In this document: positions 12,942 to 32,702 of the stretch, piece by piece
Numbering within the stretch: the first letter of the stretch is position 1
Layout: the number at the start of each line of letters is the position of its first letter
Source: a virus
UHGV virus genome: UHGV-0163196
Reading direction: 5' to 3' (one strand)
Length of the DNA: 42,561 nt
Notes under the pieces: model-generated
Databases searched by the model: none
What the model saw: the letters and a program-made list of their open reading frames with translations, nothing else
Told to the model about the DNA's origin: nothing
Program-made: the position numbers and the translations under genes

Positions 12942-13260
12942 TCTGCGCTTGCAGGCTGTCGTTCTGCTCTTGCAGCTTGAGCAGCGCTTCTTTCAGATCG
13001 GCAATCAGCTGATCTTTATCGACAATCTGCTTATCTTTGTCGGCAATCTGCGCTTGCAGGCTGTCGATAATGGGTTGCAGATCATCGGTGTCGCTAATCA
13101 CGCTTTCGGAAAGCTCAGAATGCGCCTGGGTGAACCAGTGCGACGCGACCTCTTCCGGTACGTTATGCCGTCCCCGGCCAAACTCCCTTTTTGACTGATC
13201 GCCGAGCGTCAGCGTAAACGGGGTGTGAACATGGATGGTAACCAGCTTTTCTTTCGCCAT
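12871..13260 (-). CDS. Coiled-coil structural protein (decoration/head fibre candidate)
   Basis: 129 aa; C-terminal repeats ([22 protein letters not shown]) encoded by DNA direct repeats; follows the major capsid gene. Confidence 0.4.
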
Positions 13261-14737: not shown

Positions 14738-14969
14738 CCGGTACAGGAATGCAAGGCTATTATTTAATCACCTGAAATATAAGGGTTTATTTGCAGTCTG
14801 ATTTTGCGTGTAGTCCATAGGCTGCTCTGTGATGTATGTCGCTGAATGGGGTAAGTTACTCAATAACAGATCTGTAGGATTTACAGGGGATTTCAATATG
14901 CAAGCTGTGCCACCAGCCCATTAGCGAACGGCGCTATTTTCCGCGCGTGACGTGTCACGGCGCTGGTGG

Positions 14970-15443: not shown

Positions 15444-15535
15444 TGTTCACCTTTTGACAAAGGAAATAAAAGTAGCGTGCTGAGTTCTGCCCCTGCACCG
15501 CTACTTAAAGTTACAGATCACGTCATGGGTAGCTA

Positions 15536-16108
15536 TCACTCGCTCTCCAGATCCTCAAGAGAGAAGCAAATATGCTGTGTTGAAACAAAATAGCTCAGCA
15601 TGCTGCTTACCTTGTTTGACGCGACGTAATTATAATGCTCGACCATCTTTGCTAACGCGATAATCTCCCACCAGTAATGCTTAACTAGCTTTAGCGAAAT
15701 TAAATAAGCCCGGCTATAGAGCTTGTCGCAATCATCTCCTGTTGCGCCTTGGTTCCTGTATTGCTCAAGCACTTTCCGAATATCGCTGGCGTCTCCTTTC
15801 CCTCCATTTTCCAGTAGTTTTTCAGGTGGTTCGCCTGAGTAAAGGTGTTGTGCCATTACGCCAGAAAAAGAGACGACCATCTGCGCCAGTTCATCTTTTC
15901 TGACGGGGAGATGTGAGCATACCGCCCGGCAATTATCGACCTCTTTGCCGTTAGCCAGTCGAGCAATACGAAACTCATCAGCAATAGATATCTCAATTTG
16001 CCTAGCACCCGTAAACCACGCAGCCATCGCGTGACCGGCTTCATGGATCGCGATATTTCTGTCCCACATAGGGCTTTTGCTGAATTCAACAATTACGCCA
16101 TCACTCAC
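15536..16108 (-). CDS. Standalone HExxH zinc metallopeptidase-like protein
   Basis: 190 aa with the motif IAIHEAGHAMAAW (HEAGH, as in FtsH/M41 and ImmA-like peptidases) and no ATPase domain. Confidence 0.5.
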   Translation of the reverse strand: MSDGVIVEFSKSPMWDRNIAIHEAGHAMAAWFTGARQIEISIADEFRIARLANGKEVDNCRAVCSHLPVRKDELAQMVVSFSGVMAQHLYSGEPPEKLLENGGKGDASDIRKVLEQYRNQGATGDDCDKLYSRAYLISLKLVKHYWWEIIALAKMVEHYNYVASNKVSSMLSYFVSTQHICFSLEDLESE

Positions 16109-16170
16109 GCTGCTTACTCTCCGTTAGATCTGTCATTTAGTTAAATTGAACTGCGTTGGGGGAGTCTCCA

Positions 16171-16350
16171 TCACACACTCCCTTCAACTGCTATTGATTC
16201 CAGCGCCTTAGCCACCAGCCCACGAGCAATTTGATGGACAGACGGCGCGACGCCAATATCGGAGCGCTGGCGTTCGCGCTCCTGGATCTTGCAGATTGCG
16301 GCGAACTGGTCGCCAGAGAGTAATACCGGCTTAACGTTTGGCTTTTTCAT
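16171..16350 (-). CDS. Small hypothetical protein (59 aa)
   Basis: Internal start MKKPNVKPVLLSG… of the 112 aa track ORF; the other reading would overlap the upstream 64 aa gene. Confidence 0.3.
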   Translation of the reverse strand: MKKPNVKPVLLSGDQFAAICKIQERERQRSDIGVAPSVHQIARGLVAKALESIAVEGSV

Positions 16351-16525
16351 CCTGTTCACTCCAGAACTTTGCATTCGCTTCGTTGACTTTTTCCAGATTG
16401 CGGCATTCGTTGTTGAAGTTGTTGCGCATCCGCAATTGCTCGGCCTGTTCACGGCCAAAGAGTTTACGCCCGGCGCTTTGCGGGTTTCCTGCAGCCAATT
16501 TCGGGTCATAAATAGCCATGCTCAT
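16331..16525 (-). CDS. Small basic hypothetical protein (64 aa)
   Basis: ATG preceded by AAGGAG with good spacing; lysine/glutamate-rich and probably helical. Confidence 0.4.
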   Translation of the reverse strand: MSMAIYDPKLAAGNPQSAGRKLFGREQAEQLRMRNNFNNECRNLEKVNEANAKFWSEQDEKAKR

Positions 16526-16531
16526 TGCTCC

Positions 16532-17095
16532 TTACTTCGTGCGATGCCAGAAACTGGCGTTATCGGTGTTAATGCTGCGAATGGCGTCGCCTGTGGAGAG
16601 AATCTTCGGTGAAACGTTGTTAACTCGCATGTAGTCGCCAACCTGCTCCAGAACGTCGATAGCCTGATCAAGCTGAATCTCTGATAGCGGGGTCGGATGT
16701 ACCGCACTGAATGCCTCAGCGGGTGCGTAACGCAGCACATCAAGCGCAACAAGGCGAGGATCGGTATCAGGAAGGGCGTTGTCATACTTTGGTGCTACAG
16801 CGCGTACCAGGCGCATAAATTCAGCGTCCATTGCCGTTGGTGCGGTAGAGGTGGGAGAAGCGCCGCTGCCACTACGTGTAATCATGTCACTATCGCGGGT
16901 GTACATCCGGCGCAAGCGGTCTCCGGTTGCAATGCGTGTTGCACGTTCCTGCTTAAGCGTCGTTGCAAGATTCGCAATGACGAGAGCCACAGGAAGCGAG
17001 CAGGTCAGCCTTTCGAACGTATCATCGGAGTAAGTCACCTCGACGGTACCACCAGCGTTATCACTTTCCAGATTAACATTGGTTATCTGTTTCAT
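16532..17095 (-). CDS. Hypothetical protein (187 aa), first gene of the island's left module
   Basis: ORF following a promoter-like AT-rich region at 17100-17250; no recognisable motif. Confidence 0.45.
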   Translation of the reverse strand: MKQITNVNLESDNAGGTVEVTYSDDTFERLTCSLPVALVIANLATTLKQERATRIATGDRLRRMYTRDSDMITRSGSGASPTSTAPTAMDAEFMRLVRAVAPKYDNALPDTDPRLVALDVLRYAPAEAFSAVHPTPLSEIQLDQAIDVLEQVGDYMRVNNVSPKILSTGDAIRSINTDNASFWHRTK

Positions 17096-17378
17096 TGTTC
17101 ATAACCTTTTGCGTTGTTTAAATTCTGATCATTGCATAAATTGCAACATTAGTAAATATCATTGCGCATATTGAAATGGCAAATCGACGTGATACTATGA
17201 CGGTGATCCACCATTGTGTGATTGCATAAACATGGTTATCAAAAGCCCTCGCCTCTCCAGCGCGGGCTTTTTCTTTTCCGCTCCGCAAAGTTGCCGTTTC
17301 CGCATACTTTCACTTAGGCGACGCCCCTCCAAATTCGTAATTACTCTCCGAAAAAACTCTATAGATAAGCAAAAACAT

Positions 17379-17675
17379 GTTGGTTCAGTTGGTTCAGTTG
17401 GTTCAATTTGTAAAGATTGTTGTTTTATAAGGATTATTTCTTTCAGAGTGAACCAACAAAGCCCCGTTTTGAACCAACAAACGCTATTTTCGTGTTGGTT
17501 CAGTGGGAAAGATTTACAGGCCAGCCAGAAAAAGGCGTTGGTTCAATAGCGGCATTTGTTGGTTCAAAATGGGCGTTTGTTGGTTCGGTGTTGGTTCACT
17601 TACAAGCATGTAAATGCATTAAATACATACACTTATATTAATTAAATAGTTACTGAACCAACTGAACCAACAAAA
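17379..17675. repeat. Iteron cluster: candidate satellite replication origin
   Basis: At least 12 copies of the core TTGGTTCA in both orientations (for example 17379-17405 tandem, 17449-17457, 17470-17478, 17494-17502, 17654-17670), interspersed with AT-rich DNA, immediately downstream of the primase-helicase gene. Confidence 0.7.
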
Positions 17676-17696
17676 AAACATCTCGTATGTGTGTTT

Positions 17697-20477
17697 TTAT
17701 TCTTCACCCTCCATCTCGTCGGGTCGTAGCTGGAGCACATAAACGTTTATCTGGCGTCCATCAATTCGCGGGGATTTACGCTGATACCCCCTTCCGCTGG
17801 CTGGCGGTTTCAGCACCCCAGCCCCGGCCAGCACACGGGCAAACTGTTTCGCGTTGAATCCCTTCGCAATCTCACCTTCGAATGCTGCCGGGAACGTGTA
17901 GAACACTATCGGATCAGCATCATGCGCCCCTTTCTGACGGTACCCGGCCAAATCCCGAATCGGCATGTCAGCCGGGTCATAAGGGTAAGGTGCAAATCGG
18001 CTCAGTCCGTATGCATTAAGAAACGCCTCTGCCTGCTCGATGATCTGCTTATGCTCACGGTTCCCCGTGCCAAACTCTTTCACCCAGGCGTTAAAGCCAT
18101 GCTGGATGGCGTCCCGGCTTTCCTGCTCCCCCCAGCCAGTGACAGGCATCCCAAGCACCAGCGCCGCCTCCAGAATGGCGAACCGCTCGCCTACACGATG
18201 AACCTGTTCGCCATAATCAGCGGGGATAAGACTGCGCCAGCGCTCTTGCGCCGCTCTGACAGCTTGTTTTGCCTCCTGCTGGTGGCCTGCAAGCCATTTA
18301 ATCCATTCACGGCCTGCGGCTCCGTGGTTCGTCTGGTAAGCCTCTTTGAGTGCGTCGGCGTGTTGCTTCCCGTTCTGGTACTCATGGTGCGTTACTGATT
18401 TCTCCATCGGTAAATTAAGCAGCCGCACCAGTTGTCCGGCCTTAACTTTCAGCCCACCAGCAGAAAGAAACGTCTCAATGTCCATTTCCCCGGTACTGAT
18501 CGCCACGGTACGCCAGCGCTTTAACTCGCGGTTGCCTCCCTCCTTCGCCCCCTGTAGCTTTCCGGCACCGTTAAACAGCGTGTAAGCTGACGTGGCAACG
18601 TCTTTGGCGCTACTGCCCTGCCCCACTTCGTCCAGCGGTAACAGGCTATCGTTATGCGCTTCCGCTTCGTTGGCGATACCCAGCGCAGTACCGTACCAGG
18701 TGAGGCGCAGGGCATCCGGTTCACCGTATAAACTGCTGGCAATGTTGGCGGTCGTTGTCTTCCCTGCGCTGGACTGTTCGAAAAGGTGAACACCGAAACC
18801 GTCAGCGCCAACAAGCCCGATCAGCGGTGCAGACAGCGCAGCCGCAACACCCAGCATCATTGACGGGTTTCCCAACGCAAGACGCGCCACCGAATCACGC
18901 CAGCTTTCCGGCGTTCCACTGACGGTATAGCCACCAGCCGCCGCACTGCGGCCACTGAATAAAAGCGGTATCTCTGGATCACCAATAACATCACCATCCG
19001 GCATGATGTACGCCCCGCTGTGCCAGCCTGTGGTGTGGCTGATCTGCCACTCCTTGCCGCTACCGGTTCGCTGTAGCCAGTCGGCCAGAATTGCCCGCAA
19101 CGATGGTTTGGTCGTCACACTGACACCGCCGTTTTTCAGAGTTCGCCATCCCTCGCGGTCGCCAATGTCCTCCCAAGGAAGCGCACGGGTAACTTGCCCC
19201 CGATTGCCGGGAACGTCCCAACGCAGGATCAGAAAGCGCTGTCTGGCGTTATCACTCCCCGCACCAGCAATCTCCAGCGGAGAGCATAGCCACGCCTCGG
19301 TATTGATAATTTCCCCTGTGTCTTTGTCCACTTTCGGGGTGATCCAGTGAATGCCATCCGAACGGCTCTCTACTCGCGGTTTAAGGTCGTCGTCGATACC
19401 AGGGCTTTTTTTGCCGCCGTCGATTGCTGTCAGTGTCGCACCCACTTTCTTACCCTCCGGTTGATACATTGAGTCGTTAAATGCTGCTGTGGCCGCTTCG
19501 AGGCCGTATTGCTGGTGGTAGTCGTTCCAGTCCGCTTTATAGTCCACTGGTGGCATGGAAACCCAGCCAGAAACGGCTTTCGCGGCTTTCTCTGCGGCCT
19601 CCTTGCCAGTGTTAACTTTCACTCCTTTAATTCCGTCACTTTCGCCCATCTGGTCGTTATCTGCGGCAATGATGATTTGTGCCTGTGGGTACTTCCGGCG
19701 CATCACTTCGGCAACGGGTAGCAGGTTGCCCGCGTCAATTGCTGCCACTGCCAGCGCGTCCGGGCGCATCAGGTGAACTGAAAGGGCCGTCGCCAGCCCC
19801 TCGGCAATTAAAACGCTCTGCGGCGATTCTGGCGCGTTTACGGCATGATATGCCCCGCGCTTTGCTGAACCTGTCAGGAGTCGCTTCTCTCCCTGCGGTG
19901 TAATGGTTTGCGCTGCTGCCACTGCGCCGGATTCGTCCACCAGCTCCAGCAATAACGAACCATCAGGCATAACCGGATAGTTAAACCCGGTCAGCCCTTT
20001 TGATTGCAGGTAATCAGATTCGCCCTGTGTGGCACTCTGGCGCATTCCGGCATACAGACGGGCAAACGTAGCCCTTCGCTGCTCTGCGTCCCCTGCTGCC
20101 TGTTTCTGGCGCTCCTGCTCACGCTGCTGGCGGTCAGCTTCCAGTTGCTCCCTTCTATGGCTCGCTGCCACCGGGTCGGATTGCGCTGCCAGGTAATCAA
20201 TACCCAGCACGTCAGCGGCAAGCTGTGCCGCCTCCGTAGTGTCGCAGTTGTTAACCCGCTTGATTAAATCCAGCCCGTCACCAGCGCCACACTGGTTGCA
20301 GATAAAGCTACCGCGCCCGTTGTCGTCGAATCTGAAACGGTCTTTTCCACCACATGCAGGGCATGGAGAATGGCGGCGCGATGAATCAGGCACGTCGATA
20401 GACAACCCAGCCAGCACATAAGGCCAGCGCCCTGCTGCGGCGCTGGTCACTTCGCGGATAAGGTCGATATTACGCAT
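17697..20477 (-). CDS. P4 alpha-like primase-helicase (zinc-ribbon, TOPRIM, D5-like helicase)
   Basis: Zinc ribbon CPACGG…CNQCG, TOPRIM-like IIIAADNDQ, Walker A SSAGKTTT; ~925 aa. Start taken at MRNIDLIRE. Confidence 0.85.
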   Translation of the reverse strand: MRNIDLIREVTSAAAGRWPYVLAGLSIDVPDSSRRHSPCPACGGKDRFRFDDNGRGSFICNQCGAGDGLDLIKRVNNCDTTEAAQLAADVLGIDYLAAQSDPVAASHRREQLEADRQQREQERQKQAAGDAEQRRATFARLYAGMRQSATQGESDYLQSKGLTGFNYPVMPDGSLLLELVDESGAVAAAQTITPQGEKRLLTGSAKRGAYHAVNAPESPQSVLIAEGLATALSVHLMRPDALAVAAIDAGNLLPVAEVMRRKYPQAQIIIAADNDQMGESDGIKGVKVNTGKEAAEKAAKAVSGWVSMPPVDYKADWNDYHQQYGLEAATAAFNDSMYQPEGKKVGATLTAIDGGKKSPGIDDDLKPRVESRSDGIHWITPKVDKDTGEIINTEAWLCSPLEIAGAGSDNARQRFLILRWDVPGNRGQVTRALPWEDIGDREGWRTLKNGGVSVTTKPSLRAILADWLQRTGSGKEWQISHTTGWHSGAYIMPDGDVIGDPEIPLLFSGRSAAAGGYTVSGTPESWRDSVARLALGNPSMMLGVAAALSAPLIGLVGADGFGVHLFEQSSAGKTTTANIASSLYGEPDALRLTWYGTALGIANEAEAHNDSLLPLDEVGQGSSAKDVATSAYTLFNGAGKLQGAKEGGNRELKRWRTVAISTGEMDIETFLSAGGLKVKAGQLVRLLNLPMEKSVTHHEYQNGKQHADALKEAYQTNHGAAGREWIKWLAGHQQEAKQAVRAAQERWRSLIPADYGEQVHRVGERFAILEAALVLGMPVTGWGEQESRDAIQHGFNAWVKEFGTGNREHKQIIEQAEAFLNAYGLSRFAPYPYDPADMPIRDLAGYRQKGAHDADPIVFYTFPAAFEGEIAKGFNAKQFARVLAGAGVLKPPASGRGYQRKSPRIDGRQINVYVLQLRPDEMEGEE

Positions 20478-20811
20478 GGTTGCCTCCTGCCACGGTCGCG
20501 CCCATATCATTAATCATGCTTTGCCATATCTCGCGCCCGACGTCAGTCAATCCGTCCTTAGTGACGCAACGATCAAGAAGCTCGATCCCCACGGTTTCCC
20601 ACTGCGGGTAGAACACTTTCATGGCTGCCAGTGTGTAGCTATCGATCAGGCTGCGAACGCCTTTTACTCCATTGACGATTTCCACACGGACGGCGAGGCC
20701 GTCCGCATCAACCATGAAATAGTCCCCGCCGCTGGTGGCGGTAATGTGGTTATACAGTGCCGACGCATACTTATTCGCCAGCGCATTCAGTCGGAAATTT
20801 TTAGTAATCAT
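20470..20811 (-). CDS. Hypothetical protein (113 aa)
   Basis: ORF coupled to the primase start; no recognisable motif. Confidence 0.45.
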   Translation of the reverse strand: MITKNFRLNALANKYASALYNHITATSGGDYFMVDADGLAVRVEIVNGVKGVRSLIDSYTLAAMKVFYPQWETVGIELLDRCVTKDGLTDVGREIWQSMINDMGATVAGGNHA

Positions 20812-20820
20812 GTCGCCCCC

Positions 20821-21447
20821 TCAGTGCGCCAGCGGCATTTCAGGCCAGCCGTTTTCATCCAGTTCAGCTATAAAGCTGTTGTGAAGTTCAGCAAGCGTTT
20901 CACGCCCGAACGGGGTCAACTCGCCGCGCTCCGTGTCCAGCATGGCCTGATAAAAAACAATGGCGTTCGCCGTTCCCTGCTCAATGCCGTAGCGCTCAAT
21001 CATTGCGCCCTCGATGTTGTTCGCCATCGCCAGCCGTTCAGCAAACGGGTAAACCACCATGCCCGCATTACCATTGGAGTAAATCGCCACCTGCGATGAT
21101 GTGCCGTCAGCCTCAGTAACCGTGGTGGTGCCGTTCTCGCGCTTCATCTCAGAAACGAACGTCGCAGCAATCAGCCAGCGCCACATAGTGACGTTATGCT
21201 GCGCGGTGAAGTCGAACCAGCCACGCGCCCCGCCATCAGCAACGGCAAAATGAATGGCGTAGCCGATATCGGGCGTATCGTCGTACTCTCCCGCATCCAG
21301 ACGGCTTACAGCGCTCTCATAGGTGATAATGGCTACATGCTCATACATCCCGGCATCGTTGCGGGTCATGATATTGACGCCGTGCGGTGTGGCTTCGGCG
21401 TGGAACAGGTCGGGATTTCCCGGTTTAATGGTCAGTATATTGCTCAT
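20821..21447 (-). CDS. Hypothetical protein (208 aa)
   Basis: ORF in the island's early operon; no recognisable motif. Confidence 0.45.
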   Translation of the reverse strand: MSNILTIKPGNPDLFHAEATPHGVNIMTRNDAGMYEHVAIITYESAVSRLDAGEYDDTPDIGYAIHFAVADGGARGWFDFTAQHNVTMWRWLIAATFVSEMKRENGTTTVTEADGTSSQVAIYSNGNAGMVVYPFAERLAMANNIEGAMIERYGIEQGTANAIVFYQAMLDTERGELTPFGRETLAELHNSFIAELDENGWPEMPLAH

Positions 21448-21665
21448 GCTTTGCCCTCCCGATATTCACGCATTACATGGTCAGCTAGCTTGCTTTCAGC
21501 CTCGCTCATTGCTTCGGGCACACCGTGTAACAGCGTCAGAATGGAACCTATAAGGCGTGGTAAATCGGGATCTGTTTTATTGGTGGTGCTCTCCAGCCAC
21601 ATGGACAAAACAGCCTGTGCCTGTTCAATCTGGCAGGCAGCATCAATCAGTTGTAACTGGCTCAT
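21444..21665 (-). CDS. Hypothetical protein (73 aa)
   Basis: Small ORF overlapping its neighbours by 4 nt. Confidence 0.35.
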   Translation of the reverse strand: MSQLQLIDAACQIEQAQAVLSMWLESTTNKTDPDLPRLIGSILTLLHGVPEAMSEAESKLADHVMREYREGKA

Positions 21666-21925
21666 GCGCTGCCCTCCGCATCAATTCTGGCTATATCGAC
21701 AATCGTCAGGACTTTACTAAGCCAGCAATACGCGATGGCTGCTTGCTCAACTTCGAGGAGTGGTAATAAATCGGTCATAACGTGAGCCAGCCCATTGCGG
21801 GCGCGGGTCATGCGTTCTGCGGTACGCTCTGCCAGCGTGAAAGAGTCAGGGTACGGCTGTTCGCGGGATAGCATCGCCTCGGCCTCAAGATCTGCAGGAT
21901 GGCGATAGATGGTATGAATGTTCAC
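21662..21925 (-). CDS. Hypothetical protein (87 aa; GTG start or internal Met)
   Basis: ORF in series with the neighbouring small genes; start codon uncertain. Confidence 0.35.
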   Translation of the reverse strand: MNIHTIYRHPADLEAEAMLSREQPYPDSFTLAERTAERMTRARNGLAHVMTDLLPLLEVEQAAIAYCWLSKVLTIVDIARIDAEGSA

Positions 21926-22101
21926 GCTGCCACCTCCTGAATACGAGTAATACGAACGTGCTTATAACCGCCTTTATTCGCCAGTAGTTGCGCAGTCGAT
22001 TTAGCTGTTTCTGGACTGGTGCTAGTCATGGTGTAGTGAATGCCGACGGTGTTACCGCGCTTGTTAACAGCGTATCCGTCGATCTGGAAGGTTTTACGCA
22101 T
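21922..22101 (-). CDS. Small hypothetical protein (59 aa)
   Basis: Hand-translated MRKTFQIDGYAVNKRGNTVGIHYTMTSTSPETAKSTAQLLANKGGYKHVRITRIQEVAA; below the ORF track length cut-off. Confidence 0.3.
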   Translation of the reverse strand: MRKTFQIDGYAVNKRGNTVGIHYTMTSTSPETAKSTAQLLANKGGYKHVRITRIQEVAA

Positions 22102-22972
22102 TTCCGACCTCCATTGCTAAACGGGACTGGATAGCTGCCGCTTTACTGCCTAATTGCAGGTAAGTACGAGTTATCGCAGGGTTGCTATGACCCAGCATTT
22201 CAGAGGCCACTAATAGGCCCTGTTCGCCACCTGCGGACATGAGGTTAAAGGCGGCTATTTTGCGGCTTGAGTAGGCGCTCAGGCGCAATTTAGCGTTAAT
22301 GAAACGGGTAAACCACGCCATGACGCCATGAAGTTTGCGCCAGATGGTTTGGCGAGTAACGCTACCTTCCAGACGTTGACAACGGTTACTTTCGATTTGA
22401 GAGCGGGAAAATACCAGGTCGTCCTCCACCAGATTCCGATCCTGACGGTCACGCAGCCGCTTGATAATGCCGGGGGGTAACTGTTTGGTGTCGTGCTTGA
22501 CGTCAGCCTTAGCCACCAGCCCGAACACAATCGCCTGTTCTTCGTCGTTCATATCGGCGGCCAGTTCATCACAGCCGATACTATCCCACTTCATGTAGGC
22601 GATATGGTCAGCGGCGAGCCGCGCGGCGTCCTTGCGCTGCTGGCGCACAATTTCAATACCTTTGCGGGTTGCCCGCGCTTCTGCGGCTTTGGTCTGTTTG
22701 GAAACGATAATTGTCGCCTGTCCAGTTTCCCAATTGATGCAGGAATAGCGCAGGTTGCAAACGTCGCTGGTACGCCAGCCGGTTACGGTCGCAATATCCC
22801 ACCAGAGCAACACCCAATCGGGCTGTGTCTGCTGGATGCGCTCGCGTAGCTTGCGCTGCTCGTCACGGTCATAGACAGGGGTCATGGTGCGACTGCCCTT
22901 TGTGCTCGCCGCTTTAACGACATTGCCGCGCAGCTCGCGGGCTTTGGCTGTCAGAGTCTGGAGGTTAAACAT
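22094..22972 (-). CDS. Second tyrosine recombinase (short phage-integrase family, no arm-binding N-domain)
   Basis: About 292 aa from MFNLQTLTAKAREL; C-terminal LGHSNPAITRTYLQ with a candidate catalytic Tyr and conserved Arg/His positions. Confidence 0.65.
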   Translation of the reverse strand: MFNLQTLTAKARELRGNVVKAASTKGSRTMTPVYDRDEQRKLRERIQQTQPDWVLLWWDIATVTGWRTSDVCNLRYSCINWETGQATIIVSKQTKAAEARATRKGIEIVRQQRKDAARLAADHIAYMKWDSIGCDELAADMNDEEQAIVFGLVAKADVKHDTKQLPPGIIKRLRDRQDRNLVEDDLVFSRSQIESNRCQRLEGSVTRQTIWRKLHGVMAWFTRFINAKLRLSAYSSRKIAAFNLMSAGGEQGLLVASEMLGHSNPAITRTYLQLGSKAAAIQSRLAMEVGNA

Positions 22973-23153
22973 GACGCACCTCCGGCACTGGCAGACGTGC
23001 GGCCAGAGACAAAATAAAGTGCGGCGCAAGGATGCGGCGGGCTTCGCGTTCGGTCGCAGCCTCAACGGACAGACGGCAAGGTTTGGCTTTTTTATCGTGG
23101 CGATTCAGCGCGAGAAAGCGCCAGGTGAATTTTGAGTGTGCGGATCTAGCCAT
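22965..23153 (-). CDS. Small protein (possibly Icd/Ash-like)
   Basis: 62 aa, MARSAHSKFTWRFLALNRHDKKAKPCRLSVEA…; recalled resemblance to small Icd-like prophage proteins only. Confidence 0.35.
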   Translation of the reverse strand: MARSAHSKFTWRFLALNRHDKKAKPCRLSVEAATEREARRILAPHFILSLAARLPVPEVRHV

Positions 23154-23473
23154 TTTTAGCGGCTCCTAGAACATATTGAAGGAGTCTCGCCAGATGCTGC
23201 TAAACATGGGTGGCGAGACGTGACGGGGTTAGCAGACTGGCGTTCTAGGAAACCAGCAGGCGTTAAGCCTCCCCACCACGCCCCGCCATAAATCGGGGGT
23301 ATGGTTGGTTTTCGGGCGTAAAAATACCGCTATACGGAAATCAGCGGCTACCCGCTAGAACGTTCAGGCTGCTAAACCCGGCACCCGTTTTGTGAGGTGC
23401 GAAATAATCATAACCACACTACCCCGTTAAGCGCAAGGGAAATATCCCCTGCGCCCACAATGCAAACTTGTGA
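23154..23473. promoter_or_regulatory. Repeat-rich intergenic region (candidate recombinase/regulator binding sites)
   Basis: Motifs CTAGAAC and GCTGCTAAAC recur in direct and inverted orientation at 23161-23205, 23227-23250 and 23353-23377. Confidence 0.4.
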
Positions 23474-24544
23474 TTAGTACCCGCGAGAAGCGTAAACTCG
23501 TGCCATGCCAGCCCAATGAGAGAAAAGAATTTCCCACTTAATTGGGTTGTAGGTAATACTTCCATCGACTGCGGCAGCATTCCATGCCCGATCAGAAATA
23601 GAGCTATCTTTAGCAGTTTTCCCCCATTCAACAATATCCCTTGCTAAAGCCTGTACACATGCTCGACTGACTACCTTTTCGTCAACGTACGCCCCAACAT
23701 CAGAGCATGACTCCATACTCATGTTCAGGCTATTTTTAAGGGACTCCAGCCCGGCCACTGACATAAAGCGACGACCATTAGCGTATGCAACACCGTCATT
23801 CCTGATAGTGAACTTAACAGTGTGGAATGCGTCAACAATCATCCGCTGCTCTGGCGTCGGGTTCTGCCATAGCACAAGGTTAATCTCTCTCTCAGAAGCT
23901 ATTGATTCTGCTTTCTCACGCTTAACTCGTGCATCCCGTTCTGCCTGGTATTGTTTTTGATTTTCATCATGAGCCTTTTGGTAACTAGAGGCTAATGCGT
24001 CTCTGTTTTTGGCAAATGCTGCAATGCTATTTTTGAAATCGCTTCTGCTAACCTTGTTTAACCCCATACTCCAGCGGTCATTTTCGTAATCATCATAAAT
24101 GGCATCAACTTTTGCCGGATTACTCAGCACAGTCGCCAGATTAACCGGAATTTTAGCCATCTCGTCACTGATTCTCGCTACATGTTCGAAAGTCGATATA
24201 GAGCCAACTTCATGACTCCCATACTCATGATAAGCGGCATAAAAAATTGGAATAGATTGAGGTTTTTCGTTCACTGACTTAATGATGCTTTTTTCATCAC
24301 ATGACTGTTCACCCCATTTGAAAACACTTTTCCCACCATTTTTGTATGTGTTGCAATCATCAATACCCAAACGAACCAGCGCATCCCATCCGGGCCGTTT
24401 CTTGTAATCCTCGCTCTTGACAACATGCATTGTGGTTAGGGCTTTCGCAGGATCTAACTTGCCAGCGGTACAAGACACGATAGGAAAGGCCAGAGAAGCG
24501 CAGGCTGCTATCCTGAAAAGGCTCGTCAATCTTTCTTTTTTCAT
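23474..24544 (-). CDS. Lipoprotein of unknown function (island cargo)
   Basis: 356 aa; N-terminus MKKERLTSLFRIAACASLAFPIVSC carries a signal peptide with lipobox-like Cys; AT-richer than its surroundings; flanked by ~0.3 and ~0.9 kb non-coding DNA. Confidence 0.6.
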   Translation of the reverse strand: MKKERLTSLFRIAACASLAFPIVSCTAGKLDPAKALTTMHVVKSEDYKKRPGWDALVRLGIDDCNTYKNGGKSVFKWGEQSCDEKSIIKSVNEKPQSIPIFYAAYHEYGSHEVGSISTFEHVARISDEMAKIPVNLATVLSNPAKVDAIYDDYENDRWSMGLNKVSRSDFKNSIAAFAKNRDALASSYQKAHDENQKQYQAERDARVKREKAESIASEREINLVLWQNPTPEQRMIVDAFHTVKFTIRNDGVAYANGRRFMSVAGLESLKNSLNMSMESCSDVGAYVDEKVVSRACVQALARDIVEWGKTAKDSSISDRAWNAAAVDGSITYNPIKWEILFSHWAGMARVYASRGY

Positions 24545-24708
24545 CGTCCTAATGCTCTTTCAAACCAAGAATGTAGGACATAGTAAATTGTGGTTAATGG
24601 CAAGTCGATATAAAGGCCGGGTTATTGGCTTCGGTGCCAATATCATTTCTCCGAAATTTCATAACGCCTGTAATCGCTCGTTTCCCCATCTTGGGGACAT
24701 TTCAAAAC

Positions 24709-24828
24709 TGCGAATCAAAGTGCGAATGGAACTGCGAATTCGCAAAGAGAGAGCGCCGCTCAAAGCAGGCCGGATAAGGCTTCGCGGACATATTGCGAAT
24801 GCGAATCCACCAGAAACGAAACGCGAAT
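24709..24828. repeat. GCGAAT repeat cluster including the palindrome TGCGAATTCGCA
   Basis: Six copies of (T)GCGAAT within 120 bp; the 12-bp palindrome at 24733-24744 also occurs twice in the helper terS gene. Confidence 0.55.
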
Positions 24829-25384
24829 CACCCATAAACAAAACCGATACGCAGGGAGCGTACTGCCCGTATTCAATCGGCCGAAAAGTCAGCCGATTAA
24901 AATCATGCCCGGCTATCCCCTGAAATTTCAGGAGATCGAGAGCCACCAGCAGAGAACCGTTCATGCCATCGGTAACTTGCAGCCCGAAGCTCAAATCTGA
25001 GCGTTGACCGCCAGCCAGAAGAAACCATTTTAAATCCCGCGCCTTCTCTTTGGATGAACAGGGTTACTCCCCGTAATGCTGTGAACTGCCACGATGATTC
25101 GGGGTTGTGTTGCGCTGGCCTTTGAGTCCCGCACAAACACTGACCCACAAAATTTTTGTAGGTGACTGGCCCTCTTGATGAGGTGCTGTTTTGCGTAACC
25201 CTTAATGAGTTGTGCAAAGGCTCAACCCTTCAAAAGGGTTGCCTAACCACCGGCGATAGTAATAACCGCCAACCTATGAACACTATGAACACCTTTGAGC
25301 ATTTTTCTATAAACATTCCACTACTGCCCTATTTGATGCCTTTCTCTGGCTGGCCTGTGTAAGTTACCGTTGCTGGGAACTGAC

Positions 25385-25420
25385 AATAAAAAAGGCTTGC
25401 CCCTCTCAGGTAACAAGCCT
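25385..25420 (-). terminator. Putative intrinsic terminator downstream of alpA
   Basis: Stem aggcttg/caagcct at 25393-25420 with a run of A on the plus strand at 25386-25392 (U-run on the minus transcript). Confidence 0.4.
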
Positions 25421-25438
25421 TGTCTATCGCTCTGGATC

Positions 25439-25651
25439 TCACTCACTACAGATTCCGCGCTTTTGGCTCTGTCTTCCGATCCACGCCTCCACCTCATCGC
25501 GATACCAGCAATTGCGGCCGCCAACTTTGAAGGGCATCGGAAAGCCGTTCCCCTCATCCTTCAGAAATTCATAGAACGCAGAATCAGAACGGTAGCGTAG
25601 ACGGGCTTTAACTTCGACTTTGAGCAAAATATCACTGTTAGATATGGACAT
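25439..25651 (-). CDS. alpA: AlpA-family transcriptional regulator/excisionase
   Basis: 70 aa with the typical AlpA pattern (…FPMPFKVGGRNCWYRDEVEAWI…), directly downstream of the integrase gene. Confidence 0.75.
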   Translation of the reverse strand: MSISNSDILLKVEVKARLRYRSDSAFYEFLKDEGNGFPMPFKVGGRNCWYRDEVEAWIGRQSQKRGICSE

Positions 25652-25793
25652 AAAAACCTCATTATATATTCGATATAATTATATATGATTTGAATAAAAA
25701 AAACGCATTCCGGTTAGCTTTGGGCATAAAAAAAGCTGGCTTAAAGCCAGCTATACCCGTTTGAAATCATGATTATCCAGAAATGGATGTGCC

Positions 25794-27023
25794 TTACACA
25801 ACCAGCCTCAAGCCCTTATCGCCGCTGGTCTCCAGTATTTCGCCACACTCTGCGGCCTCGATAAAGTCCCCCCACCATTGCATTAAAACCCGGCGTTTTT
25901 CCAGATAGTCGCTACGGTTATAAACATTTCGAATCGCATCGGCGCTTTTGTGAGCGAGTGCAGCCTCAATCACATCAGGGTTGAACCCCTCGTCATTTAA
26001 AACTGTAGATGCCAACGCCCTGAACCCATGAGGAACAATCAGCCCTTTAAACGACGTTTTGTGTATCCCGGCCTGAGTCGCACAGCGTGAGATCGGCTTA
26101 TTTTCTTTTCGCCATGAGGGGAAAACATAATCGCAGCGCTTCCACTTTTCGGCCTCTTTAAGCACGTTTATAGCCTGGCTCGATAATGGGACTACGTGGG
26201 GGCGCTTTCCTTTCATCCGGCTTGCAGGGATTTGCCAGATTGAGTTATCAAAATCAATCTCATTCCAGAGAGCGCCGCCAGCCTCCGAAGGCCGGACCAT
26301 CGTAATGATCTGGAATAATAATGCCAGCTTTGATGGCTCCCATAAGCTCAACTCGTTCCATGCGCTTAAAAATTCGGGCAACCGCTCTTTCTGTAAAGTC
26401 GCTCTTGGCTCGTTTTTTTCAGCCGGGAATGCTTTACCAATTTTCGATAGCGGGTTGTGCTCAATAACCCCAATGTTTACCGCATAATCCATTATGGCGT
26501 TGATGGTAATAACCATTTTCGTAAGCGTTGATGGCCTTTCCCTGAAAGGTTTAAAAGCCTGAATAGTATCGGCTGCGTTTATTTTATGTACCGTGGTATG
26601 CCTAAAAATCGTGGAAAGATGCTTCAACGTCACATTGTGCGATTCAAGCGTGTTGCTTCTCGCACCTTCTTTAATCTTGATTTTTAGCCATTCATCGGCA
26701 ACGGCCTGAAATGACTGCGCGTACATTTTACGCTGTTCATTCCTGGCATCTTTTTTGACTTCGTTCGGATCTATCCCTCGCGCTACCATACGGCGCAGTT
26801 TCGAACGTTCCTCCCTCGCTTCGGACAAAGTAAACTCCGGGTATCGTCCAATAGTATAGGTTTGTCTCTTCTTCGTTACCGGGTGTACATACCGAAAACG
26901 CCATGACTTACCGCCCCGGCTTGTGATGTAAAGCAACAAACCGAAACCATCGTGCAAACTGAAATCCTTGCCCTGTGCCTTCGCGCTTTTCACTTCGACG
27001 CTAGTTAGTGGCCTAACAATCAT
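25794..27023 (-). CDS. int: P4-type tyrosine integrase
   Basis: 409 aa; N-terminal arm-binding domain typical of P4-like integrases (…DGFGLLLYITSRGGKSWRFRY…) and a C-terminal catalytic domain. Confidence 0.85.
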   Translation of the reverse strand: MIVRPLTSVEVKSAKAQGKDFSLHDGFGLLLYITSRGGKSWRFRYVHPVTKKRQTYTIGRYPEFTLSEAREERSKLRRMVARGIDPNEVKKDARNEQRKMYAQSFQAVADEWLKIKIKEGARSNTLESHNVTLKHLSTIFRHTTVHKINAADTIQAFKPFRERPSTLTKMVITINAIMDYAVNIGVIEHNPLSKIGKAFPAEKNEPRATLQKERLPEFLSAWNELSLWEPSKLALLFQIITMVRPSEAGGALWNEIDFDNSIWQIPASRMKGKRPHVVPLSSQAINVLKEAEKWKRCDYVFPSWRKENKPISRCATQAGIHKTSFKGLIVPHGFRALASTVLNDEGFNPDVIEAALAHKSADAIRNVYNRSDYLEKRRVLMQWWGDFIEAAECGEILETSGDKGLRLVV

Positions 27024-27237
27024 TCAACACCTCTCTGGCTACCATGTAATGCAAACGGCGCATGATTCTCTTTCTAGTCCCTCATGTACCGAATCAAAGC
27101 GAAATCCGGCGAATAAATCCGCACATGTTCGGAGTGTCATTTTTATGGTTCAGGCCAGTAACGCCGTATGATTCCGAACGATAACGCACTGATTAATAGA
27201 TATTAGTTGCATAAGGTACAGATATGCAGTCATTGGA

Positions 27238-28458
27238 TTATCCTTTGCGGTTAGACCAGAAGTCGGCGTTTTGTTTGTTCAGGGAAGCGATGCTGGTCAT
27301 GCCCATATTTGGACGTTGTGCATCGCCCGTGGTGCTGCGGGTGTTTCGCCCTTTGGCAATCTCTGACACGGCGTTAAACGCCATATCTACCGATTGCTTG
27401 GGCAATTTGCGGATATCTGCATCACCGACAACCTGGCGAACCAGTGTTTTGTCAGCGGCGGACAGCACATCACGTTTGAACGCGGTCGGTTTCACCTTAC
27501 GGCTCAGATCGATACCCGGGACGATAACTTCGGCACGATAAGCAGCGTCACCAGTAATCGTGGTTTCTTCTTCATCGTCCTCGCCGTCACCGGTCGGATT
27601 ATCGTCAGGCTTATTGTCGTTATCGCCCGTCGCAGTTCCTTCGAGCTTAGCCAGCAGGGCTTTGAGCAAGGTTTTGATATCGTCCTCGCCGTCGCCGGTT
27701 GGCTCTCCGCCCATTTCCGGCTTTTTGTCCGGCAATGGTTGCTGCGGTGAAAGGTTAATGTTGAGGTTAACGCCGCTCGGCAGATCCCCTTCGTCACCCG
27801 TTACCGCCGCTGGCGCAGAGTCCAGCAGTTCGTTCATGGTGTCAGCGTCACCCGTTTTGATGGCCGTGCGCATGCGGGTCCACCAGCTTTTCTTTTGATT
27901 TGCCATTGTGTCTCTGTCTCCAATTGCACAACGATTTCCGGCTCTGCCTTTGGGGACAAGAGCCACATGGTTTCCGGTAATATCGACCTGCTCGGCTTTA
28001 CCTGGCTCGGTCTGCTCGTACTCCGCGTCATAGCCGCACGACACTTCACGCAGGCCATCTTCGATAAGCTGAATGGCGTTTTCGTCTTTGACGATAAGGT
28101 CAGCCAGCATCAAATCAGACTGATCACCAGTCCCGCGCCGAACGTTCTGAAGATGCCCGACCGCAAGCTCTTTCCAGTTCTCGGGGTTGACCAGCCGCAC
28201 ATTTCCGTTTTCATCTTCAGGATGCAGGATCGTGATGCTCATCCCTTCGAATGAGGCGAGCGTGGCCGGATGGAATACCTGCTCAGGAGAGCGCGTTACG
28301 ACTATTTCACCGAACTTATCGGGTTTCAGTTTTGGCAGGTCATCAGCACCATAGAGCTGCTTACCTGTTCGTCCTATCGGCACGTCTTTGCACAGCAGCG
28401 AGCCGTCAGCCAGCTGATAACGGGTTTCCCCCAGCCGGGTATTGAAAAAATATTTCAT
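27238..28458 (-). CDS. Capsid scaffold/maturation protein (putative), with acidic Gly/Asp-rich linker
   Basis: 406 aa ORF downstream of the head-morphogenesis gene; central low-complexity acidic region. Confidence 0.45.
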
Positions 28459-29246: not shown

Positions 29247-30564
29247 TCTCGATATCCTCGTCGGTAATGGATGCCCCGATGCCGGTGACGTCAGAGTTTT
29301 CGCGCAGGTCGGTCATCGCCGCCTTACGCGTCATCAATCCGTCGCCCAGCGCGGTACTGATCGCGTTGGTGGTGTTTACGGCCACCGTTGATCGGTCAAC
29401 GTCTGACATTTGCCATAGCGGGTTAAACTCAAACGTGAAATCGTCCGGCAGCGGCTTTCCGAGTTCCGAGCGGTGCATAATGTCCAGTATCCGGCGCATC
29501 GGCAGCCGTAAGCGGCGCTCCTGCAATGAGCTCACCCGGTCGTAATAGTTGGCGAGGTCTGCATCACCAGTAGAGAAGCCTTTCGGGGATTGACCGAACA
29601 GGCGTACCAGCGGGATACCAACGGCACCGCTGATCTGCTCAGCAAACTGCGAAAGAATGTCATCCAGACCGCTGAAGCTGTACTGGTGGGTTTCGAACTT
29701 ATCCCGCGAGTCCATGAGCGTCATGCCTTCATTGCTCTGGAACTGGCGGATCAGGTCGATGTTCTTCAGCAGCGCCTCGAACGCCGGGCCGCCAAGCGCG
29801 ATAAGCTCGCGCAGCTTCTCCACGCTGTAGGTACGCAGATGTGCTTTGTAGACCAGCTGCGCCGCGCCGACAGTGGCGCTGTCGAACGCAGTAAGCCGAT
29901 CCCAGATACGCTCTACAACCGACATTCCCCATTCGTTTTCGGTCATCTTCTGCTGGAATGGCAGCGTGACGCCATCAAAGCGGATCAGGCGGCTGTGATG
30001 GATGCGCCAGGCCGGAATGCCCGTTGCGGTGGTCACCACGTCGTAAAACTCAGGCTTGCCGAGGTCCGGCCCCATCTCTTTAATGCGGCGTGTCAGCACC
30101 GGGTTAATCATCCAGCGGTCGAGCGGGAGAATGCCCTTAAACTTGCCCTCGCCAATGGTTTCGAGTCGCAGCGGGGTCATTGGTGCTTGCCCCTCGATCA
30201 TGATGAAGCCGACCGCGCCGCCGTAGAGGCGCGACCATTTCAGCACGTCGTTCAGCGCATCCCAGATCTGCAACTCATCCAGTTGCGCTTCGAGGGTGCC
30301 ACGGTCTTTGGCGTCAATCTCCGAAGTGATGCGAATGCCCTTTCGGGTCATATCGTCCGGGATAGCGTCGACCGCTTCACCGATAACCCACGAACCGCGA
30401 TATGACCATTCCACCAGCATGCGGTTGCGGCTGGTGGAGTTCGCCCGGTAGGTCGATGCTGAATGCTGGTTAGGCGTCTGCATCCCAACGCGGGCGACGA
30501 AGTTCTCGTAGCTGTCAGCGGTGGGCTGTGCCGTTCGCTGAGAGGATTGCTTGTTTCGTGCCAT
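29095..30564 (-). CDS. Portal protein
   Basis: About 490 aa ORF directly downstream of terL; start probably at MARNKQS. Confidence 0.7.
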   Translation of the reverse strand: MARNKQSSQRTAQPTADSYENFVARVGMQTPNQHSASTYRANSTSRNRMLVEWSYRGSWVIGEAVDAIPDDMTRKGIRITSEIDAKDRGTLEAQLDELQIWDALNDVLKWSRLYGGAVGFIMIEGQAPMTPLRLETIGEGKFKGILPLDRWMINPVLTRRIKEMGPDLGKPEFYDVVTTATGIPAWRIHHSRLIRFDGVTLPFQQKMTENEWGMSVVERIWDRLTAFDSATVGAAQLVYKAHLRTYSVEKLRELIALGGPAFEALLKNIDLIRQFQSNEGMTLMDSRDKFETHQYSFSGLDDILSQFAEQISGAVGIPLVRLFGQSPKGFSTGDADLANYYDRVSSLQERRLRLPMRRILDIMHRSELGKPLPDDFTFEFNPLWQMSDVDRSTVAVNTTNAISTALGDGLMTRKAAMTDLRENSDVTGIGASITDEDIENAEDEAPPGIGELGDKPPESPGGDPISNEPTADSAGGRGYRKWALRWFKR

Positions 30565-31967
30565 CAGGCTTGCCTCCCGAGCAATTCCCAAATATCCATT
30601 GTTGTATCGGTCGGCGCGAACGCCATTATGAAAGCGTCGGCAATGTTAGGTGAGGGGATATCGCGCTTAGCCAAATCTTTCTTGCTTTCAACCATAACCC
30701 TACCGTTACGATCAAAGTCTCGGTGCGGGGTCGTCAGCTCAAGCTTTAGTTTCTCCAGGTGCGGGCACGATGAATCGATACTTATCAACTCATCAACAGG
30801 ATATTCCTCTCCATTTTTCACCGCGTTGAACGTATTACGAAAGCGATCAGCTACCAGCCACCATGCCTGGGCTTTCAGATTGGCAAAGAAGTCTTTATTC
30901 GGAATGCCGTTATATTCAGAATCTGGCTCGTTCACACCAGCGCCAGCATTGAAGCGTTGATAATTAACTGGTCGTGAATAAGGATTTTCACGTCGTCTGT
31001 CTTCGTTAATTTCCGAGAATTTAGCACCAGCAGAAGCGCCAACACCAATGGAGTCATAAACGATATCAGCACTTCTCTCTGTGGCTGCCTGATATGCCCG
31101 CTGGCAGCTTTTAAGAAGCTCGTCTTCTTTTGCCTTCCATTCATCAGCCCAATACACAACGGAGCCATGACGATAAACATTGGAGCACTTATCCGCACCG
31201 CTATCGGCAACGTCGAAGCCTATTCGCTTTCGTCCGTTTGGCTCAAAACCAAGCACCTTATGGGCATCTATTGCAGCCTCAATCCACGAAAGTTTAATAA
31301 TTGCCGCGTCATCATCAGATTCGGGAACCCCCATATAAACGTGGTCAAACCCCTCCGGATCACGACGCTTTGCAGCCGAGATAACCTTAAGCATGGTGTC
31401 TGAGAGGAATGGGTTTTCGTCGTAATTGATTTTTCTCACCAACGTATCTTCTGGTGGATCAACAACGAAATTACGCCATACAAAGTCAGTCACCAGACCA
31501 GGGTTAAAAATAAACCAGCATTCAGATCCGCTTTTACGAATGGTTGGTTCCAGTATCTTCCACTGGTATTCCGTTAGTGCATGGGCTTCTTCAAGCCACA
31601 AAACGCTGATACCTTCCAGGGATTTAATTTCTTCGATATTGCGCCATAAACCGTAAAACACGAATTCTGAGCCAGTGACCCGGTTGATAATTTTATTATT
31701 CAGAATTCGGAAGCGATGCCGCAGCCCAAACCGTTCAATCTGTATTTTGAGCAGGGTATAAACCGACTCTTCGATTTTGTTCTGAATTTGACGTGCGCAA
31801 CAGAAACGCAGGTTGTATTTATTTGCCAGAAAGACAGCAAACCCAGCAGCATCCCATGACTTTGACGATGAGCGCCCACCAAAAAGTACTTTATTTCGAG
31901 CCTGTGTCGTCCAGAAGTTCCTTAGGGCCGGATTCAGGGTCGGTTTGGATGTCAGAGTAGAAGTCAT
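30564..31967 (-). CDS. terL: Terminase large subunit (start uncertain)
   Basis: ATPase plus nuclease architecture (…VLFGGRSSSKSWDAAG…, …VLWLEEAH…); overlaps the 3' end of terS. Confidence 0.8.
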   Translation of the reverse strand: MTSTLTSKPTLNPALRNFWTTQARNKVLFGGRSSSKSWDAAGFAVFLANKYNLRFCCARQIQNKIEESVYTLLKIQIERFGLRHRFRILNNKIINRVTGSEFVFYGLWRNIEEIKSLEGISVLWLEEAHALTEYQWKILEPTIRKSGSECWFIFNPGLVTDFVWRNFVVDPPEDTLVRKINYDENPFLSDTMLKVISAAKRRDPEGFDHVYMGVPESDDDAAIIKLSWIEAAIDAHKVLGFEPNGRKRIGFDVADSGADKCSNVYRHGSVVYWADEWKAKEDELLKSCQRAYQAATERSADIVYDSIGVGASAGAKFSEINEDRRRENPYSRPVNYQRFNAGAGVNEPDSEYNGIPNKDFFANLKAQAWWLVADRFRNTFNAVKNGEEYPVDELISIDSSCPHLEKLKLELTTPHRDFDRNGRVMVESKKDLAKRDIPSPNIADAFIMAFAPTDTTMDIWELLGRQA

Positions 31968-32646
31968 TAAGGTCACGATCTCCATTACCGTCATCAACGC
32001 CAGCATCACGACGAAGGCGATCCGCTTCCAGAGACACTTTGTCAGTGGAGGCGAGCCGATGCTCTATAGATGCCTTTGTGAATTCCAGCGACTCAATGCG
32101 GGCCGTGTTACGGTGCATGGCTTTTTGCGCAGATGAAATTAGCTCGTGAAGATTATTGGCGGTATCGCCATCAGCTATTTCAAGCTCAGTCTGCCAGCGG
32201 CCAATATTTTCAGCAGCGGTAAGGTTCGCCGCACGCAACCAGAAAAGCTCATCATCAAGAGTGAGCGCCTGAGCATCCTCGGTAATGGCATCAGATAGAA
32301 GCATTCGGCGTCCATAGCCACCATGCTTCAATGCGTTCTGATTTCCGGGTCTGGAATTATAATGAGCGCGTTTCGTTTCTGGTGAGTTTGATGGTTTTGC
32401 GACTTCGCAGTTATCCACTAAGCCCGCTGGTGGCTTACTCTTTGCCACTTTCTCCTTTTGCGAATTCGCAGTTTTATTCGCACTTTTCTTTTGCGAATTC
32501 GCACTACCATTCGCAATTTTGATATAGCGCTTTGCAGTCGAGTAATTCAGTCCCTGCGCTTCACACCATTCTTTGGGGGAAATGCCGGTTTTGGCATGTT
32601 CGGACAGGAACCGTTGCTGAAGCTCGCCCCAGTCCGGCTTTGCCAT
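31891..32646 (-). CDS. terS: Terminase small subunit (HTH N-terminus)
   Basis: 251 aa directly upstream of terL; N-terminal HTH-like segment (ISPKEWCEAQGLNYSTAKRYI); contains palindromic DNA repeats. Confidence 0.55.
   Translation of the reverse strand: MAKPDWGELQQRFLSEHAKTGISPKEWCEAQGLNYSTAKRYIKIANGSANSQKKSANKTANSQKEKVAKSKPPAGLVDNCEVAKPSNSPETKRAHYNSRPGNQNALKHGGYGRRMLLSDAITEDAQALTLDDELFWLRAANLTAAENIGRWQTELEIADGDTANNLHELISSAQKAMHRNTARIESLEFTKASIEHRLASTDKVSLEADRLRRDAGVDDGNGDRDLNDFYSDIQTDPESGPKELLDDTGSK
32459..32516. repeat. Palindrome TGCGAATTCGCA x2 plus ATTCGCA half-sites inside terS (candidate pac/TerS recognition site)
   Basis: Full copies at 32459-32470 and 32492-32503, half-sites at 32476-32483 and 32508-32516; encodes the repeated peptide ANSQK. 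Confidence 0.4.
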
Positions 32647-32702
32647 GAATATTTCCTCTTAATGACATTATCGAAGCCCCTCAGTGAAGGGCTTCTGTAA
32701 TG

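Follow-up and report, generated by a model that had tools for sequence, protein, structure and literature searches.

A candidate P1-type pac recognition array inside the small-terminase gene of a lambdoid prophage, and its apparent copy in an embedded satellite

Here, we analysed an array of hexameric repeats located inside the small-terminase gene (terS) of UHGV virus genome UHGV-0163196, a stretch of virus DNA of 42,561 nucleotides that, at its full length, is referred to below as the window, together with a further cluster of this motif, which lies in a satellite embedded in this prophage, its helper. The terS open reading frame (ORF; 31891–32646, minus strand) encodes a protein of 251 aa (TerS) that belongs to PHROG 370, 'terminase small subunit' (E = 1.7e-75, residues 1–243), and has more than 2600 recovered homologues; a Pfam scan of TerS matched no family, the P22 and Sf6 types included. 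The gene is preceded by the lysis genes of the lambdoid prophage and overlaps the large-terminase gene terL (30564–31967, minus strand; Terminase_3/PBSX family, Pfam PF04466, E = 8e-38), the start of which was taken from the RefSeq annotation of an identical gene (L001). We consider the label terS justified for this ORF because of the PHROG 370 match combined with the overlap with terL. In the AlphaFold2 model of TerS, a three-helix N-terminal domain (block-mean predicted local distance difference test score (pLDDT) of 71–85) is separated by residues 46–117, all at pLDDT below 50, from a helical hairpin that spans residues 123–214 and mostly exceeds a pLDDT of 90. A Foldseek search of the whole model against the Protein Data Bank (PDB) produced nothing significant (best E = 0.3, all coiled-coil proteins), and a profile search of PDB sequences with TerS gave nothing relevant; because no similar solved structure was retrieved, the fold assigned here is that predicted by the model alone. 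Just upstream of the terS start codon, there is a 16-nt imperfect inverted repeat (TTATCGAAGCCCCTCA / TGAAGGGCTTCTGTAA) at 32668–32700.

Seven copies of the hexamer TGCGAA/TTCGCA lie within 118 bp of terS (32398–32515), all of them in codons 44–83, that is, inside the segment encoding the low-confidence linker. The proximal part of the array (32459–32515, minus strand), defined by the sequence itself and by the positions in orthologues, consists of two units of a 33-bp tandem repeat (32455–32487 and 32488–32520, 85% identity) built of perfect 12-bp palindromes TGCGAATTCGCA at 32459–32470 and 32492–32503 and half-sites TTCGCA at 32477–32482 and 32510–32515. On the terS sense strand, TGCGAA starts at gene nt 132, 144, 165 and 177, and inverted copies at nt 150 and 183 complete the two palindromes. 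The corresponding peptide reads ANGSANSQKKSANKTANSQKEK, with ANSQKK at residues 49–54 and ANSQKE at residues 60–65. The two palindromes, the two half-sites and the ANSQK(K/E) repeat were described in an initial annotation of this DNA, and all are present where it placed them; the interval that it proposed, 32459–32516, holds these features but is too short, given that the array extends to 32398 and possibly further, to an ACGAAAC element at 32370–32376. The additional site is a near-palindrome at 32398–32409 (minus strand), 61 bp from the nearest palindrome, written TGCGACTTCGCA, which reads TGCGAAGTCGCA at gene nt 238–249 and encodes Cys80-Glu81-Val82-Ala83 in a different codon phase. The spacer of 49 bp that separates the proximal sites from the distal one (32410–32458, minus strand) is not conserved in the alignment and, by analogy with P1, might be the region in which the DNA is cut.

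The clustering of the hexamers is more than chance. The seven copies within 118 bp compare with 0.09 expected (Poisson P of 1e-11, or about 4e-9 after correction for window number), and the exact 12-mer is found three times, always inside one of the two clusters, against 0.0025 expected in 42.5 kb. The heptamer TGCGAAT occurs 20 times in the window, a count attained in 0 of 100 shuffles, and 12 of these copies fall in the two clusters, in terS and in the satellite.

The DNA of the array, rather than the ANSQK peptide, appears to be the conserved unit. The proximal hexamers begin at the third codon position (..T GCG AAT TCG CA.) and yield A-N-S-Q, whereas the distal copy begins at the first position (TGC GAA GTC GCA) and yields C-E-V-A; in the Rahnella orthologue L015 (49% identity), the array TGCGAAttTGCGAAtTGCGAA carries the motif in three phases, and its peptide, TANLRIAKSE, has no repeat. 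Codon usage was compared, descriptively, in eight genes of the window's own class (class A, see below), from Escherichia, Trabulsiella, Pantoea, Kluyvera, Raoultella, Kosakonia, Enterobacter and a Klebsiella phage. Codon pairs for the same residue were identical in 237 of 249 cases (95%) when the third base lies inside a hexamer, compared with 710/986 (72%) in the part coding for the helix-turn-helix and 141/209 (67.5%) in the rest of the linker; the GCG, AAT and TCG codons of the motif are invariant in all 28 sequence pairs. When conservation of the DNA is set against that of the peptide among terS relatives, as the initial annotation had proposed, it thus appears to be the hexamer DNA that is constrained. 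The ANSQK repeat would then be a by-product of the DNA site that is tolerated in the linker: the predicted disorder of this region suggests that the protein can accommodate whatever peptide the site dictates.

A further conserved element lies beyond the distal hexamer. Comparison of codons across hexamer classes revealed ACG AAA CCG (Thr-Lys-Pro, within a TKPIRG motif at nt ~270–285) in 10 of 12 genes from three classes, and ACG AAA CGG (Thr-Lys-Arg) in the remaining two, L015 and phage 933W. For Thr and Lys, the codons agree in 66/66 gene pairs, compared with 19–31 of 66 at neighbouring synonymous sites. In the window, the ACGAAAC element (32370–32376, minus strand) falls on Thr-Lys-Arg codons, and the same heptamer recurs in the satellite, at 24816–24822. 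Speculatively, ACGAAAC could be a part of the site that is independent of the hexamer class.

The identity of the hexamer follows the N-terminal domain of TerS. We examined 23 loci with TerS relatives recovered by a genome-wide search, to which phage records were added, and called the motif as the most frequent 6-mer of terS nt 100–400, with no prior assumption. In 11 genes, the recognition helix AKRYI is paired with TGCGAA or an overlapping 6-mer (AATTCG in L004, ATTCGC in L028); this class includes a Yersinia phage with an otherwise unrelated TerS body. The helix ARRYI/L, found in Scandinavium, a Klebsiella phage, an E. coli phage and an Aeromonas phage, goes with TGCGCA or the overlapping CTGCGC (L029, L030). 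Eight genes and L042, with MAKPDWEAIE...GAIRKRAKK, have GTACGCA, with one inverted copy, and the Shiga toxin (Stx) phage 933W, with the helix ARTRIK, has four copies of (C/T)GATCATGA (the GATCAT class) at 12-bp spacing. The pairing of helix and motif held in 24 of the 26 genes, and the arrays start around nt 130, right after the segment that codes for the domain. The class-A positions (132, 144, 150, 165, 177, 183 and 238) recur exactly in L002 and are at most 1 nt off in L010, and other class-A genes have subsets of the window's hexamer positions; the positions are kept across genera, at 57–67% protein identity, while the spacer and the linker diverge freely. The distal TGCGAA (gene nt 237–238) is likewise present in L002, L003, L007 and L010, which, together with the window, combine a proximal cluster with a distal site 49 bp away. 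Loss of the repeat from close terS homologues had been named by the initial annotation among the observations that would tell against a packaging function; an array was found in every class-matched homologue examined. In loci of ~20 kb, the class motif is clustered in terS and nowhere else, except where the locus contains a satellite. The domain with its array is also found on unrelated TerS bodies. This pattern is as expected if the domain and its binding site evolve and recombine together.

The coupling of a DNA repeat to a peptide repeat, which the initial annotation considered unusual, turns out to be common among these relatives: ANSQK gives way to AQ in the TGCGCA class, GTQ in the GTACGCA class and four copies of IDHE in 933W, and phage P1 prints IDH, NDQH and GDH. 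A repeated peptide arises because a repeated site has been placed in a coding region.

The presumed reader of the hexamers is the N-terminal helix-turn-helix domain of TerS (residues 1–43; 32518–32646, minus strand), which was delimited from the AlphaFold2 model, homology to PacA and the tracking of hexamer classes. A profile of this domain aligns to residues 2–41 of P1 PacA (hhalign probability 95.6%, E = 1e-8), although plain pairwise BLAST gives only E = 0.023; a tblastn match to D6 PacA has an E of 4e-4. The homology is restricted to the N-terminal domain, and the remaining parts of the proteins are not alignable. No other ORF of the window matched a profile of the class-A helix-turn-helix domain. 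P1 pac lies inside pacA and comprises seven hexameric repeats that contain Dam sites, and synonymous mutation of these repeats lowers P1 packaging (PMC10028697). In the P1 record, we located four TGATCA hexamers at pacA nt 194–233, the mapped cuts at nt 275–285 with an adjoining IHF site, and further TGATC(A/G) copies at nt 324–380, three of them in nt 324–352 and the fourth, TGATCG, at nt 375–380.

The second cluster of the motif (24709–24805) is located 7.7 kb from the terS array, in the satellite, within a block of ~260 bp (24693–24950, plus strand) that contains no consistent ORF, is collinear with terS nt ~130–300 and represents a putative pac mimic. Its proximal part (24709–24744, plus strand) has TGCGAAT at 24709, 24721 and 24733, with 12-bp spacing, the last copy being part of the palindrome TGCGAATTCGCA at 24733–24744; the distal sites (24794–24828, plus strand) are TGCGAATGCGAA at 24794–24805, ACGAAAC at 24816–24822, followed by AAACCGATACGC, and CGCGAAT at 24822–24828. 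Counted from start to start, TGCGAATGCGAA follows the palindrome by exactly 61 bp, a distance that also separates the distal site of terS from its palindrome. Altogether, the block holds six hexamers, with a variable spacer between the proximal and distal sites. In a tblastn comparison, it aligns to TerS residues 47–99 only (E = 0.003), without the helix-turn-helix and oligomerisation parts, and its reading frame is inconsistent, since the window has no start codon ahead of the array and L059 has a stop codon in the spacer. Seven distinct satellite variants differ in the spacer and in both flanks yet have nearly the same hexamers, and the three proximal TGCGAAT copies are identical except for the middle copy of L038 (T to C). 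In L059, whose satellite integrase is 32% identical, the block lies not beside alpA but in the gap that separates the primase gene from the next gene, and the satellite of L042 has no block. The simplest reading of the block is mimicry of a pac site.

Other interpretations of the satellite array were tried and rejected. A role as replication origin was dismissed, since a separate set of iteron-like repeats adjoins the primase gene, from which the array is far removed in the window. A satellite protein as the reader of the array was discarded, given that no other window ORF matches the helix-turn-helix profile. Finally, strict matching of the satellite array class to the helper TerS class was abandoned, since most of the block-bearing satellites reside in helpers with a TerS of the DUF2280 type. 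After the hexamers, the block contains, at 24875–24932, a hairpin AATCGGCCGAAAAGTCAGCCGATT with a variable stem, a perfect 9-bp one in some variants, and a perfect 14-bp palindrome CCTGAAATTTCAGG.

On these several independent comparative lines, we propose that 32398–32515 is probably the recognition part of a P1-type pac site of a headful-packaging lambdoid prophage. The suggestion of the initial annotation that a pac site lies inside terS is thereby retained, albeit with a different model: P1 is closer than P22 or Sf6 because it has both a homologous domain, in PacA, and, within pacA, an array of hexamers. The comparisons show the array, its conservation as DNA, its co-variation with the domain class, the homology to PacA and the satellite copy; we infer that the site is bound and cut, a direction of packaging and use of the array by the satellite, and these could fit together as follows. 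TerS would form a ring to which the N-terminal helix-turn-helix domains are attached by flexible tethers, and several of these domains would bind the TGCGAA array, which directly follows the DNA encoding the domain. The bound and wrapped DNA would recruit TerL through the C-terminal part of TerS, and TerL would cut nearby, so that processive headful packaging begins. The array segment of the satellite, devoid of the protein domains, would presumably let the helper TerS-TerL package satellite concatemers.

Several observations weigh against this proposal. Because the compared sequences share descent, the statistics on conservation have descriptive value only. Some class-A genes (L006, RothD) lack the distal site, and the two-cluster layout of P1 is therefore not general; D6 and the gene of a Xenorhabdus plasmid, both family members, have no obvious array. 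The TGCGAA hexamers of the window lack GATC, so that the Dam control of P1 cannot apply to them. Furthermore, most satellites with the block reside in prophages of the same head-gene lineage but with the other terminase module (DUF2280 TerS and another TerL), so that in most cases block and resident helper do not match, and the block could be a relic in such prophages.

Three alternative explanations were considered. The hexamers might be regulatory operators, with TerS or another protein binding its own gene to control late transcription or translation, or else RNA hairpins or terminators. Operators are typically palindromic, and, on the antisense strand, a simple scan does list the palindrome plus T-run as weakly terminator-like, but the number of such sites is at the chance level (2 found vs 1.0 expected), as are the results of promoter and terminator scans at both arrays, with no promoter-like site nearby; the stems are only 5–6 bp long, and no other window protein has a matching domain. 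Regulation also leaves unexplained both the retention of this segment alone by the satellite and the parallel with P1 pac, and we regard it as very improbable. The second explanation, neutral slippage or tandem duplication in a low-complexity linker, with the satellite block as a decaying, functionless terS pseudogene, seems to us highly improbable. The 33-bp unit is indeed a tandem duplication, the homologue P0049 lacks one unit, and the block is clearly derived from terS, is absent from the satellite of L042 and is mostly found in helpers of another terminase type. Against neutrality stand the maintenance of hexamer positions across genera next to a freely diverging spacer and linker, the presence of a different hexamer in the array of each domain class, and the block itself, which retains its hexamers amid replaced flanks and has moved within a related satellite. 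Highly improbable as well, finally, is selection of ANSQK(K/E) as a lysine-rich peptide repeat, for example a DNA-contacting arm, with incidental palindromes: the peptide ANSQKKSANKTANSQK is basic, adjoins the DNA-binding domain and is well conserved among class-A proteins, but its region is predicted to be disordered, codon choice in the motif is nearly fixed, and the motif recurs in other frames, encoding unrelated peptides, and in DNA without a consistent ORF.

If the array in terS is a pac recognition site, a broader scenario can be advanced, although only tentatively. The helix-turn-helix domain of this TerS/PacA superfamily and the adjoining array might form a portable, self-matching specificity cassette that has been exchanged among otherwise unrelated terminases (P1, Stx phages, lambdoid prophages). 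Satellites would have captured the array half of this cassette as a movable block of ~260 bp, packaged by helpers of the TGCGAA class, and kept a DUF2280 TerS for other helpers, a two-route piracy, with ACGAAAC(C)G perhaps being common to all classes.

The satellite (~12.5 kb; 14754–27214, minus strand) is inserted in the first codons of the helper cement-protein gene, between this gene and the one for the scaffold (DUF2213), in the orientation of the late genes; comparison defined 14-bp imperfect direct repeats at its ends (14740–14753 and 27215–27228). In prophages with an identical TerS and no insertion, the scaffold and cement genes are 4 bp apart; the insertion deprives the cement gene of its first 7 codons and ends its tight coupling with the scaffold gene. 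The satellite encodes an integrase, AlpA, a C4-like RNA, an Icd-like gene, a second recombinase, a primase and a DUF2280 TerS-like gene. In being inserted in a late gene of the helper and sharing its orientation, it matches the helper-embedded phage-inducible chromosomal islands (HE-PICI), a type defined previously, with 14 listed target sites (PMC10111431). The DUF2280 gene (157 aa; 14970–15443, minus strand) encodes a product 65.6% identical, mostly in its C-terminal half, to a protein located directly upstream of terL in related prophages with the other terminase module (L025), and is missing from the satellite of E. coli ABWA45 (L001). It is possibly the satellite TerS for a second type of helper; no repeat array was found inside either the satellite or the helper DUF2280 genes. 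The presence of both the array and this TerS suggests that the satellite has two packaging routes.

An Rfam scan of the whole window identified a C4 antisense RNA alone (23206–23293, minus strand; 75 bits, gathering threshold 45), with no match at either array. This RNA lies upstream of the satellite Icd-like gene, an immunity arrangement of the P1/P7/P4 type. Just downstream of the satellite primase gene, three iteron-like copies of TGTTGGTTCAGTTGG at 17378–17507 have the look of a replication origin.

The terminase modules of these prophages are mosaic. Prophages L025, L026, L027 and L037–L043 share with the window portal proteins that are 94–99% identical and head-morphogenesis and scaffold proteins that are 91–100% identical, yet carry at least three terminase modules: a PHROG 370 TerS with a Terminase_3 TerL, a DUF2280 TerS with another TerL, and a further TerS type. 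The junction of this mosaic falls between terL and the portal gene. In L012 (Shigella flexneri) and L013 (E. coli), terL is broken by ~1.3 kb (locus 11384–12715), giving a tblastn match in three pieces, probably due to an insertion element. Elsewhere in the window, there are two pairs of 24-nt direct repeats, each exactly 105 bp apart (27574–27702 and 12938–13066), one inside the scaffold gene, where it repeats the peptide PTGDGEDD, and the other near the ORF at 12871–13260.

Should these proposals hold, the pac recognition sequence could be read straight from terS in a terminase family that is widespread in enterobacterial prophages and includes Stx phages, which may aid the prediction of generalised and lateral transduction sites. 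The matched pairs of domain and hexamer (TGCGAA, TGCGCA, GTACGCA, GATCAT) would provide a natural set for understanding how a helix-turn-helix ring reads DNA. Copying the linker-coding piece of a helper terS would be a simple route by which a satellite becomes packageable, and the captured array of the satellite, along with the idea of a domain-array cassette, is to us the more interesting part of the present results. An odd peptide repeat would be explained as the footprint of a DNA signal, which calls for caution in annotation.

Among known packaging sites, P1 pac is the most similar. In both cases, the gene that harbours the site encodes the recognition subunit, and the site follows the segment coding for the N-terminal helix-turn-helix (HEX4/HEX3 and PacA-PacB in P1) and consists of clustered 6-bp repeats, 7–21 bp apart, that print a repeated peptide, and the N-terminal domains are homologous. 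The two differ as follows: the hexamer is TGCGAA in the window and TGATCA/G in P1; two pairs of window hexamers are fused into perfect 12-bp palindromes; the array begins ~3 bp after the domain-coding part, compared with ~70 bp in P1; there are 6 proximal and 1–2 distal copies instead of 4 and 3; and no IHF site was identified in the window array. The rest of the 251-aa TerS, with its helical hairpin, and the Terminase_3 TerL are unrelated to PacA and PacB. Phage 933W (L0112) has a TerS of the same family (33% identity over 90% of the query) and a four-copy array with 12-bp spacing at the same gene position, encoding the peptide IDHEIDHKTDHEIDHD; its repeat differs in holding GATC, as in P1, and is accompanied by the recognition helix ARTRIK. 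P22 pac has been described as a short site, inside terS (gene 3), that holds a single consensus motif (PMC11260489). As in the window, it is embedded in the small-terminase reading frame, where it can be altered at wobble positions with the protein unchanged (PMC11260489), but P22 and Sf6 differ from the window, which has a repeat array and a TerS with no Pfam match to their families. We found no description of the pac site of this TerS family in the literature, the coverage of which was incomplete, so that an earlier description may exist.

The satellite block also has precedents. The phage-inducible chromosomal island-like element (PLE) mimics the pac site of phage ICP1 (bioRxiv 10.1101/2024.04.22.590561), and the HE-PICI 11capE and its helper have in common a 258-bp putative cos region (PMC10111431). 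In each case, as in the window, a satellite contains a sequence similar to the known or putative packaging signal of its helper without encoding a TerS of that helper type, and the window satellite resembles HE-PICI further in being embedded in a late gene of the helper. It differs in that the putative mimic is a captured fragment of a helper-type terS, limited to the linker segment, and in that the helper is of the pac type and the satellite has a TerS-like gene of its own, from a different family (DUF2280).

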